Origin: a virus
Lineage: Duplodnaviria > Heunggongvirae > Uroviricota > Caudoviricetes
Virus record (IMG/VR): IMGVR_UViG_2537561946_000006
DNA length: 64,000 bases
Direction: 5' to 3' (one strand)
Part shown: piece by piece, positions 59,479 through 60,925 of the stretch
Numbering within the stretch: the first letter of the stretch is position 1
How the letters are laid out: the number at the start of each line of letters is the position of its first letter
Position numbers and translations under genes: made by a program
The notes under the pieces: generated by a model
What the model saw: only the letters and a program-made list of their open reading frames with translations
Told to the model about the DNA's origin: nothing
Databases searched by the model: none

Positions 59479-59937
59479 TTATCTGGCAAGCATACGTTGT
59501 TGATGCTGTTTCACAACACGTAAACGTAAGCTGTCATAGGCCCAATTGTAGAACATGGTATATGGTAGAAAGAAAAGGAAGAATCCTATCTCTAGTGTAA
59601 AAGCCTGTAACAGACTGACGCTCAGAATCCAGGACACCATAATGACGCCGATCGCGATAAATCCACTTTCAAAGCCCAAAGCATGGAATGCACGAACTTT
59701 TGCAGTTCGTTTTACCTGATGAGCAGGCCAGTAGCGATCAAATAGCATGTTATAGATGATATTCCAGATCATTGCAGTTGAAGCCAACAAGATAGTCATC
59801 CCGCCCATTTCGAGTATAGTTCGCTGCATTAACCATGCTGTGGTGGGGGCCAGAATCGCAGTGGCAATTCCTTCAAAGCAAATAGCGTGAAAAATACGCT
59901 CAAGTAACGATCTGCGTTGAATCGCATTATGTTGCAT
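59479..59937 (-). CDS. PACE-family (bacterial transmembrane pair) small efflux protein
   Basis: 152 aa, four TM segments, duplicated motif RIFHAICFEG / RAFHALGFES. Confidence 0.6.
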   Translation of the reverse strand: MQHNAIQRRSLLERIFHAICFEGIATAILAPTTAWLMQRTILEMGGMTILLASTAMIWNIIYNMLFDRYWPAHQVKRTAKVRAFHALGFESGFIAIGVIMVSWILSVSLLQAFTLEIGFFLFFLPYTMFYNWAYDSLRLRVVKQHQQRMLAR

Positions 59938-60040
59938 AACTTACCTTTCTTACAGTTTCGACCGCGTTATGGAGTTGTGAGATTTTTATCGATTTATGTG
60001 ATATATAAAAGATAGATACCATCGAAAAAATTGATAGATT

Positions 60041-60925
60041 ATGCGTTACTCACTTGAAGCGTTAAGTACATTTGTTGAAGCGGTTTCCTGTGGCTCCTTT
60101 TCTGCTGCGGCACGAAGATTACGCAAAAGTCAGTCCGCAGTCAGTACGTCAATTGCCAATCTTGAGGTCGATCTTGGTATATCATTATTCGATCGCTCTT
60201 CGCGAGAACCTGTGCTGACAGAGGAAGGAAAGAAAGTATTGAGTTACGTTCATGCGATTTTGTCAGCCAGTGAACGTCTTGAGGAGGTGGCGGTTTCGCT
60301 TGCCGGAGAGACTGAAGCTCGTCTGACGTTTGTGCTTTCCGATACCCTACACCCTGACTTATTAGAAGACATCATGGTGCAGTTTGATAGTCAGTTTCCA
60401 CATACTGAGTTAGAGGTTTTAATTGGTGAGGATGTCGATGTCATCGATCTTTTGCAAAAAGAACGAGCGCAGATCGGCTTAATTGAGTCTCGGGAACACT
60501 ACCCCACCGATATTGGCTCAACCCGTTTACCGATGCAAGCGTGGATGGGCATTTATGTTTCGGCGTCACATCCACTGTCTGCAGAAAAAACAATCCAGCG
60601 GGAACAACTTCATTCATGGCGAGAACTTCGTCTTAATACTTATATCGATAACCGGGAGATGATTGCCCGTGGACCGGTTTGGTCTGCACCTAACTATTTG
60701 TTGTTACTCAGTATGGCCGTACAGGGATTTGGCTGGTGCTCTCTGCCCTGTGCTCTGGTTGAGGAGTTTGCAACAGAAAAACCGCTGGTTCAGCTCGACG
60801 TACCTGGCTGGCCAAAGGCAATTTCTATCGATCTGCTTTGGAATAAAAAATCGCCACCAGGCGCGGCTGGAAATTGGCTTAAGCATCATTTACAGCATAT
60901 CAATGCCCCAAATAGTCGAACTTAG
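60041..60925 (+). CDS. LysR-type transcriptional regulator, divergent from PACE gene
   Basis: 294 aa; N-terminal HTH ...FVEAVSCGSFSAAARRLRKSQSAVSTSIANLE. Confidence 0.85.
   Translation: MRYSLEALSTFVEAVSCGSFSAAARRLRKSQSAVSTSIANLEVDLGISLFDRSSREPVLTEEGKKVLSYVHAILSASERLEEVAVSLAGETEARLTFVLSDTLHPDLLEDIMVQFDSQFPHTELEVLIGEDVDVIDLLQKERAQIGLIESREHYPTDIGSTRLPMQAWMGIYVSASHPLSAEKTIQREQLHSWRELRLNTYIDNREMIARGPVWSAPNYLLLLSMAVQGFGWCSLPCALVEEFATEKPLVQLDVPGWPKAISIDLLWNKKSPPGAAGNWLKHHLQHINAPNSRT

Follow-up and report, generated by a model that had tools for sequence, protein, structure and literature searches.

A PACE-family transporter gene and its divergent LysR-type regulator as a likely two-gene moron of Escherichia lambda-like prophages

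Results

The viral record IMGVR_UViG_2537561946_000006 of the IMG/VR collection is a stretch of 64,000 nt (hereafter the window) that carries, near its right end, a gene for a small predicted efflux pump of the PACE family facing a gene for a LysR-type transcriptional regulator (LTTR). We consider it likely that this locus is a self-contained two-gene moron of Escherichia lambda-like phages, encoding a four-helix PACE proton-coupled exporter of cationic amines together with its cognate LysR regulator. The element that bears the pair is a defective lambda-like prophage at thrW of E. coli. Both open reading frames (ORFs) have the positions, lengths and divergent orientation given in the original prediction, with 103 bp between them:

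59479–59937, minus strand: PACE-family transporter gene, 152 aa, with two BTP domains and motifs 1A, 2A, 1B and 2B
59938–60040, no strand assigned: divergent control region of 103 bp, shared by the pump and regulator genes
60041–60925, plus strand: LysR-type transcriptional regulator gene, 294 aa, divergent from the pump gene

The pump is a predicted PACE transporter distinct from AceI

Judged by its sequence, the 152-aa protein has every feature by which the PACE family is recognized. The Pfam model BTP (PF05232, 'chlorhexidine efflux transporter') matches it twice (E = 2.8e-44, 149.4 bits against a cut-off of 25.6), and the two halves of the protein align with each other. Two NCBIfam models score it above their cut-offs, NF033664 (PACE_transport) with 169.8 against 80 and NF033665 ('multidrug/biocide efflux PACE transporter') with 205.6 against 165, in agreement with the family first proposed for it. 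The PACE motifs are RxxhaxxfE (1A, in transmembrane helix [TM] 1), WNxx[y/f]NxxFd (2A, TM2), RxxHaxxFe (1B, TM3) and Ytxx[f/y]nwxyD (2B, TM4) (Hassan et al. 2018, PMC6195760). In the pump these read RIFHAICFE (residues 14–22), WNIIYNMLFD (58–67), RAFHALGFE (82–90) and YTMFYNWAYD (126–135), so that the duplicated RxFHAxxFE noticed originally is present as motifs 1A and 1B. Residues universal to the family are a glutamate in TM1, an asparagine in TM2, an alanine at the periplasmic end of TM4 and an aspartate at its cytoplasmic end (PMC6195760). When the pump is aligned with true AceI and five orthologs, E22, N59/N63, A112 and D135 are invariant, and E22 aligns with AceI E15. This residue is the TM1 glutamate of AceI, and its neutralisation abolishes transport. 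The AceI reference was taken from the pair on a contig mislabelled 'Acinetobacter phage MD-2021a', whose proteins score 258.6 (AceI) and 564.6 (AceR) bits, above the equivalog cut-offs.

An AlphaFold2 model of the pump (28 orthologs; mean pLDDT 79.9) consists of four helices at residues 11–37, 41–69, 79–105 and 109–151, linked by two three-residue turns and one nine-residue loop (70–78). By manual count, 13 lysine or arginine residues fall in the N-terminal tail, the 70–78 loop region and the C-terminal tail versus 1 in the two three-residue turns, a distribution that fits an N-in/C-in topology of the modelled protein. A Kyte-Doolittle scan (19-residue sliding window, cut-off 1.6) detected TM3 alone; TM1, TM2 and TM4 were missed because of the E, N and D residues in them. 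A sequence search of the PDB found no PACE structure. The pump scores 93.8 bits with the AceI equivalog model NF033663, whose cut-off is 180, and is 32% identical to AceI, which makes it a predicted PACE member and not an AceI ortholog. The original prediction had named topology and alignment with AceI as the checks on family membership: the modelled topology agrees with it, and the alignment does so in motifs and conserved residues, with orthology to AceI itself falling away.

The regulator and a conserved control region

The divergent gene encodes a predicted full-length LTTR, with an HTH_1 domain (PF00126, residues 5–64, 71 bits) and a LysR_substrate domain (PF03466, residues 89–285, 74.5 bits). 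Its best named NCBIfam match is the AceR equivalog NF052373 (126.9 bits against a cut-off of 500), and it is 29% identical to true AceR over the full length; like the pump, it is a predicted family member and not an AceR ortholog. A divergent LysR regulator lies beside every PACE gene studied (PMC4406071), and the aceI/aceR-like arrangement described for the window is borne out by the two domains and the 103-bp spacer.

Two candidate binding sites lie within this spacer:

60021–60035, no strand assigned: predicted LTTR-type box 1, ATCGAAAAAATTGAT, ATC-N9-GAT with a T-N11-A dyad
59988–60002, no strand assigned: predicted LTTR-type box 2, ATCGATTTATGTGAT, ATC-N9-GAT

The boxes are 33 bp apart, centre to centre. 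T-N11-A is the classic form of an LTTR dyad. We aligned the spacers of the loci from 80 enterobacterial species and found that the ~60 nt beside the LysR start codon are strongly conserved, with the pump-side half variable. The arms of box 1 are conserved in all 80 loci, and the sequence between them varies. Box 2 keeps ATC-N9-GAT in 61 of the 80, with 37 variants between the arms; the other loci have ATC-N9-CAT or, in one case, ATC-N9-TAT, both of which still satisfy T-N11-A. The candidate boxes fit what would be predicted of an LTTR with a divergent target gene.

The pair occupies a discrete insert in the early-left arm

In phage HK140 the two sequences that flank the pair are joined with only ~35 bp between them, which places the insertion boundaries in the window at 59410/61134. 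The insert and its surroundings are as follows:

59411–61133, no strand assigned: cargo insert of 1,723 bp (44.3% GC), delimited by comparison with the empty site of phage HK140
59387–59406, minus strand: intrinsic terminator, a hairpin (ATCCCCGC-CCTC-GCGGGGAT) with a T-run after it, 73 nt past the pump stop codon
59356–59375, minus strand: second, tandem terminator-like hairpin
59169–59336, minus strand: lambdoid ORF55 (phrog_676), the phage gene downstream of the cargo
58797–59141, minus strand: lambdoid ORF114 (phrog_1229)
61127–61909, minus strand: phage dATP/dGTP pyrophosphohydrolase-DUF551 gene, upstream of the cargo in the pL direction

The cargo thus sits between the DUF551 gene and ORF55 in the early-left arm (int-xis to exo), and its GC content of 44.3% compares with ~48.5% in the flanking phage DNA. 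The pump gene is co-oriented with the early-left (pL) operon and no terminator separates it from the upstream early genes; the regulator gene is antisense to the operon. Both hairpins lie in phage-homologous DNA, as similarity to the tL4/terminator region of HK140, HK022 and 434 extends up to 59410. In a megablast search of 50,697 phage records the flanks alone matched, and 270 records match the flanks only. Positions 59100–59410 (ORF114/ORF55 and the terminator region) are 95–97% identical to HK022, 434, mEp213 and Stx phages; on the other side, a short stretch past 61134 has matches in phage records as well. PHROGs contains families for ORF114, ORF55, the DUF551 protein, the excisionase and a generic LTTR, and none that matches the pump.

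The cassette is probably a moron, being a discrete insert between adjacent phage genes that close relatives of the phage lack. Its autonomy would lie in its own regulator, the conserved control region and the two phage-derived terminators after the pump gene. With other lambdoid morons (e.g. bor, lom, sodC and the nle effectors) it shares the insertion between conserved phage genes, terminator boundaries and a composition unlike that of the flanks, and would share regulation of its own and dispensability for phage growth. It differs from them in lying in the early-left arm, where theirs is the late region, in carrying a dedicated transcription factor, and in using the phage's own tL-type terminators in place of imported ones. 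A 45-aa ORF with a single hydrophobic helix (61047–61184, minus strand), at most a candidate gene, spans the right cargo junction and runs into the 3' end of the DUF551 gene, with no match among the PHROG families.

One slot, four attachment sites and two Escherichia species

The pair is present in 14 of 5,426 complete E. coli genomes (0.26%), always on the chromosome and in copies that share 99.7% identity or more; no further variant turned up in these genomes when blastn was run in 'distant' mode. RefSeq annotates the two genes as 'multidrug/biocide efflux PACE transporter' and 'LysR family transcriptional regulator'. The sources of the host strains include soil, water, goat, cattle, dog and human. 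The phage slot of the pair is the same in every case, with four attachment sites (thrW, argW, torS and ybhC) and two Escherichia species represented. The thrW type, which is that of the window, runs int, IS3, ORF114, ORF55, cargo, DUF551, ea22, exo, bet, gam, truncated P and inverse autotransporter; in the matching genomes this prophage is without N, cI, cro and O. At argW the element is mostly a 3.5-kb remnant (torI, ORF114, ORF55, pump, regulator, DUF551 fragment, intS fragment, tRNA-Arg) from isolates of humans, goat and cattle in North America, Europe and Asia. In these remnants intS and DUF551 have stops, frameshifts or truncations, and both cargo ORFs are intact. Strain Rb-50 has a fuller prophage with the pair at argW. 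The torS type is represented by the soil isolate VCSW7, in which a nearly complete lambda-like prophage beside torS runs through int, xis, N, cI, cro, O, P, nin, Q, lysis, terminase and tail genes. The ybhC (att-lambda) type occurs in E. albertii and in E. coli OZ038756.1.

The major capsid gene of the VCSW7 prophage is split by an element of ~11 kb (NZ_CP082357.1, 2847223–2858436) that has its own integrase, primase, single-stranded DNA-binding protein, major capsid, head-decoration and abortive-infection genes. This element looks like a capsid-forming phage satellite inside the capsid gene of its helper.

Beyond complete genomes, the exact pump protein is indexed in 1,921 blocks of a public assembly collection, and its 90% cluster contains Escherichia only. 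Spread by free phages was considered and rejected: none of the 50,697 phage records contains the pair, and the four IMG/VR matches are one and the same defective E. coli prophage. The description of the pair as unusual phage cargo is upheld by this count and by the lack of a PHROG family for the pump. The tblastn matches to PACE proteins in the phage collection are limited to a 691-kb Salmonella contig and the mislabelled Acinetobacter contigs, all bacterial. The 'Acinetobacter phage MD-2021a' records (up to 378 kb) and the 691-kb Salmonella houtenae contig are bacterial chromosome within a phage collection; one MD-2021a record carries a genuine aceR-aceI pair, and such records could yield false 'phage-encoded' calls. 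A plasmid route was likewise rejected, since no plasmid copy exceeds 83% identity. Two Enterobacter hormaechei plasmids (NZ_CP114989.1 and NZ_CP126871.1, 51 and 59 kb) carry a PACE gene that is 73% identical and of the Enterobacter chromosomal type, possibly a second, plasmid route of PACE mobilisation.

An E. coli homolog of PACE genes flanked by transposase and phage sequences has been reported in strains TW07793 and KTE84 (Slipski et al. 2017, PMC5840245). The pump of the window is very probably the same gene as ECTW07793_0407 and the KTE84 homolog (Hassan et al. 2013, 2015; Slipski et al. 2017). This identity is made likely by the E22 numbering common to both, by flanks of phage and transposase sequence, and by the presence of a single variant in complete genomes. 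Contig KB733107.1, which carries the exact pump protein and whose accession resembles those of the KTE series, holds the thrW prophage with the IS3 element, and the prevalence of 0.26% matches the commonest published cluster. A phage-flanked PACE gene in E. coli is therefore correct and already known in substance, down to the gene name in RefSeq. The published work differs in being without the phage slot, the attachment sites, the chromosomal origin and the age of capture. New here are the precise position and limits of the slot, its occurrence at four attachment sites and in a second host species, the chromosomal home between yqeF and yqeG, which is vacant in E. coli, how old the captured pair is and what composition it has, and the conserved regulator boxes.

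Chromosomal orthologs and the age of the capture

We scanned one genome per species (185,579 species) for relatives of the pair and found them in Citrobacter (~79–83% protein identity), Salmonella (80%), Enterobacter, Lelliottia, Leclercia, Kluyvera, Klebsiella, Yokenella and others. All 80 loci have a divergent LysR ortholog at a distance of 95–129 bp from the pump gene, and in 75 of these the pair stands between orthologs of yqeF and yqeG, in the order kduD, kduI, yqeF, LysR, PACE, yqeG. In E. coli K-12, yqeF and yqeG are adjacent and separated by a 254-bp AT-rich spacer without trace of the pair. The chromosomal pairs (Citrobacter, Salmonella STY3166, Enterobacter Entcl_2273, Klebsiella KPK_0842, Yokenella) are true orthologs of the phage pair with the same architecture, a spacer of 95–129 bp and the same two ATC-N9-GAT boxes, at identities of 64–84% for the pump and 66–82% for the regulator. 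Theirs is a syntenic core locus with a GC content at third codon positions (GC3) of ~56–72%, whereas the phage copy sits in a prophage slot with a GC3 of 42–44%. A thiolase gene adjoins the PACE/LysR pair in both Acinetobacter (fadI-like) and the Enterobacteriaceae (yqeF).

Homology of the cargo to the chromosomal orthologs is limited to 59479–60897, and DNA homology outside Escherichia is restricted to the two genes and their spacer. The junctions at 59411–59478 (68 bp) and 60926–61133 (208 bp) were searched for traces of a donor locus or of the K-12 yqeF-yqeG spacer, with nothing above noise. The best match outside Escherichia is 84% identical in protein, among 5.8 billion protein clusters, and 79% in DNA. 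Synonymous divergence (dS) exceeds 1, that is saturation, to every relative, and the ratio of nonsynonymous to synonymous divergence (dN/dS) is 0.05–0.09, like that of the orthologs among themselves, from which the phage copy is estimated to be deeply diverged and under purifying selection. In a neighbour-joining tree of both proteins the phage copy falls within the Citrobacter/Salmonella clade (100% bootstrap), weakly (75%) beside one species of the C. amalonaticus group, on a terminal branch of 0.155 against a median of 0.04, about four times longer. GC3 is 44.4% in the pump gene and 41.7% in the regulator gene, below all 80 orthologs (minima 55.5 and 52.8) and near the neighbouring phage genes (46–47%). 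An identity of at most 84%, a dS above 1 and the low GC3 together indicate that the capture is old.

The yqeF and yqeG genes of K-12 are poorer in GC3 (48.5 and 49.0) than any of their ~75 orthologs from other Enterobacteriaceae, for which the minima are 56.6 and 53.9. The yqeF/yqeG region of E. coli, beside the ETT2 island, appears to be compositionally shifted.

These measures bear on how the pair came to be in the prophages. A recent acquisition from a Citrobacter or Salmonella chromosome, spreading under disinfectant selection as qac genes do, could be imagined for a mobile cassette whose protein family is linked to chlorhexidine tolerance and whose tree position lies inside the Citrobacter/Salmonella clade and, with weak support, next to the C. 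amalonaticus-group species. We regard it as extremely improbable, as the best identities outside Escherichia, the dS above 1, a GC3 under that of all 80 orthologs, the lack of a plasmid copy above 83% identity and the spread of hosts over soil, water, goat, cattle and dog besides humans all speak against it. The donor of an old capture may have been an unsampled or Citrobacter-like lineage, with the composition drifting afterwards in the phage. Alternatively, the pair could be a relic of Escherichia's own locus, in which LysR and PACE stood between yqeF and yqeG, captured by a phage before the chromosomal copy was deleted. Genus by genus, the phage pair shows identities that parallel those of yqeF and yqeG of E. 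coli, the cargo GC3 of 42–44% resembles the low values of these two K-12 genes, and no donor is known. The placement beside the C. amalonaticus-group species at 75% bootstrap, a regulator more divergent than vertical descent would predict and the failure to find flank homology to the K-12 site all count against a native relic, and we hold this origin to be a tentative one, on balance doubtful. If it were true, the temperate-phage pool and domesticated remnants like the 3.5-kb argW island would be the sole refuge of a core-genome gene lost by E. coli.

Proposed function and competing explanations

In Acinetobacter baumannii, AceR activates transcription of aceI, whose product exports short-chain diamines, and putrescine and cadaverine strongly induce aceI (PMC8458285). 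The pair described here has in common with this prototype a four-helix pump of ~145–150 aa with tandem BTP domains and four motifs, an aligned TM1 glutamate (E22/E15) and a divergent LTTR ~100 bp away. AceI is a chromosomal, core-genome protein, and the pair in the prophages is phage-borne, with identities of 32% for the pump and 29% for the regulator. By analogy with AceR and AceI, the LTTR would bind the two predicted boxes and sense a cationic-amine inducer, upon which the pump promoter would be activated and the regulator's promoter autoregulated. Such control would allow the pump to be expressed in the lysogen independently of the repressed pL. Upon prophage induction, read-through from pL would contribute further transcripts, sense for the pump gene and antisense for the regulator gene. 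The physiological substrates would most likely be short-chain diamines (cadaverine and putrescine), with a weak side activity on chlorhexidine and acriflavine. The lysogen may draw a small, conditional benefit from the cassette; this would account for an intact cassette amid a decaying prophage.

Several observations weigh against this proposal. The substrate assignment rests on AceI, which is just 32% identical. Overexpression of ECTW07793_0407 shifted minimal inhibitory concentrations (MICs) marginally, about two-fold (chlorhexidine 0.39–0.78 versus 0.195–0.39 μg/ml, acriflavine 6.25 versus 3.125 μg/ml), the Salmonella ortholog STY3166 gave no shift and KPK_0842 gave small ones (PMC4337561). 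The identity of the window pump with the tested protein is itself no more than likely. The terminators are phage DNA and were not brought in by the cassette. The ATC-N9-GAT pattern is not enriched in the window (18 observed versus 17.3 expected), so the evidence for the boxes is the phylogenetic footprint and not their count. A consensus promoter scan gave no more hits than chance, and the −10 and −35 hexamers were not placed confidently. Finally, the cassette is rare (0.26% of complete genomes), from which it follows that any benefit is small or niche-specific. The tolerance to biocides suggested in the original prediction survives in this weak form: going by the roughly two-fold MIC rises of what is probably the same protein (PMC4337561), the biocide effect of the pump is probably small.

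Rarity (14 of 5,426 genomes) and marginal overexpression phenotypes are also what one would expect of a neutral hitch-hiker, a functionless passenger that persists because the prophage remnants are young and that has no effective expression; the copies are at least 99.7% identical, so selection within E. coli is not measurable. We think this unlikely, since dN/dS is 0.05–0.09 on the long branch to the nearest relatives, as in the chromosomal orthologs, since both ORFs and both boxes are intact in 14 of 14 genomes, including the argW remnants with decayed intS and DUF551, and since the cassette is common to prophages with four different integrases and to E. albertii. A role that serves the phage, with the pump acting mainly during lytic growth or superinfection, for example on polyamine pools or envelope charge, would be in keeping with the orientation of the pump gene along pL and the lack of a terminator before it, through which anti-terminated early-left transcription would express the pump. 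Such a role seems very unlikely to us for a cassette that comes with a dedicated regulator and with a control region which the chromosomal orthologs also conserve, that is kept in remnants no longer able to make phage, and whose PACE gene has no known counterpart in any sequenced phage (50,697 records) or PHROG family. A moron that encodes an amine exporter and its regulator, to the conditional benefit of the lysogen, is the explanation that we favour.

The cargo-carrying prophage and the layout of the window

The prophage that bears the pair spans only 56000–64000 of the window and extends past its end. Its remaining features are the following:

56000–56045, plus strand: 3' 46 nt of tRNA-Thr (thrW attachment core), marking the end of the prophage
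56060–57220, minus strand: tyrosine integrase of the cargo-carrying prophage
57097–57468, minus strand: excisionase ORF (phrog_2907), matching without the first 17 profile positions
57432–58636, plus strand: IS3-family insertion sequence between xis and ORF114 (orfA 57432–57770, orfB 57797–58636)

With ORF114, ORF55, the DUF551 gene and, further along, an ea22-like protein and exo, the integrase and excisionase make up the lambdoid setting that had been recognized at the outset, with the refinement that the prophage is defective. The IS3-family element adjoins the excisionase ORF. As the phrog_2907 match lacks the first 17 positions, xis is probably truncated by this element, with its 5' end missing, and the truncation would fix the prophage in place.

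Upstream of the integrase only the 3' 46 nt of tRNA-Thr are left, the 5' part having been replaced by the preceding prophage. Chromosomal sequence at this position, as in strain 377323_2f, was considered and rejected: no thrW was detected with ARAGORN, and the 56 kb upstream belong to other prophages. These first 56 kb consist of two other prophages in tandem and not of chromosome. A second, separate large lambdoid prophage fills 3798 to ~55.9 kb, with its own integrase at 3798–4823, an 823-aa exonuclease-domain protein at 5085–7556, tRNA-Met and tRNA-Arg at 20364–20616, and gpJ and lom; its late arm matches the gpJ/lom/tail-fibre/type III secretion effector (nleB2, nleH) arm of similar annotated prophages. 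It reaches as far as the partial thrW, beyond which the PACE-bearing prophage follows in tandem. Positions 1–3674 are the end of a third, Mu/P2-like prophage with tail-fibre and tail-fibre-assembly ORFs, a Hin/Gin-type invertase (2080–2670) and a GIY-YIG protein (2731–3555), a combination that points to an invertible host-range segment. Among the complete genomes of the collection, none shows this arrangement of prophages over 80% of a 22-kb query.

Significance

PACE pumps are normally core-genome genes. Here the vehicle for a PACE gene is a fixed slot in the early-left arm of lambda-like phages, nearly complete prophages included. With published shifts of about two-fold and a prevalence of 0.26%, the practical risk of biocide tolerance looks small. 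The pair is a convenient natural system in which to address the question of PACE substrates, as E. coli is otherwise without the PACE family and an isogenic comparison would be clean.

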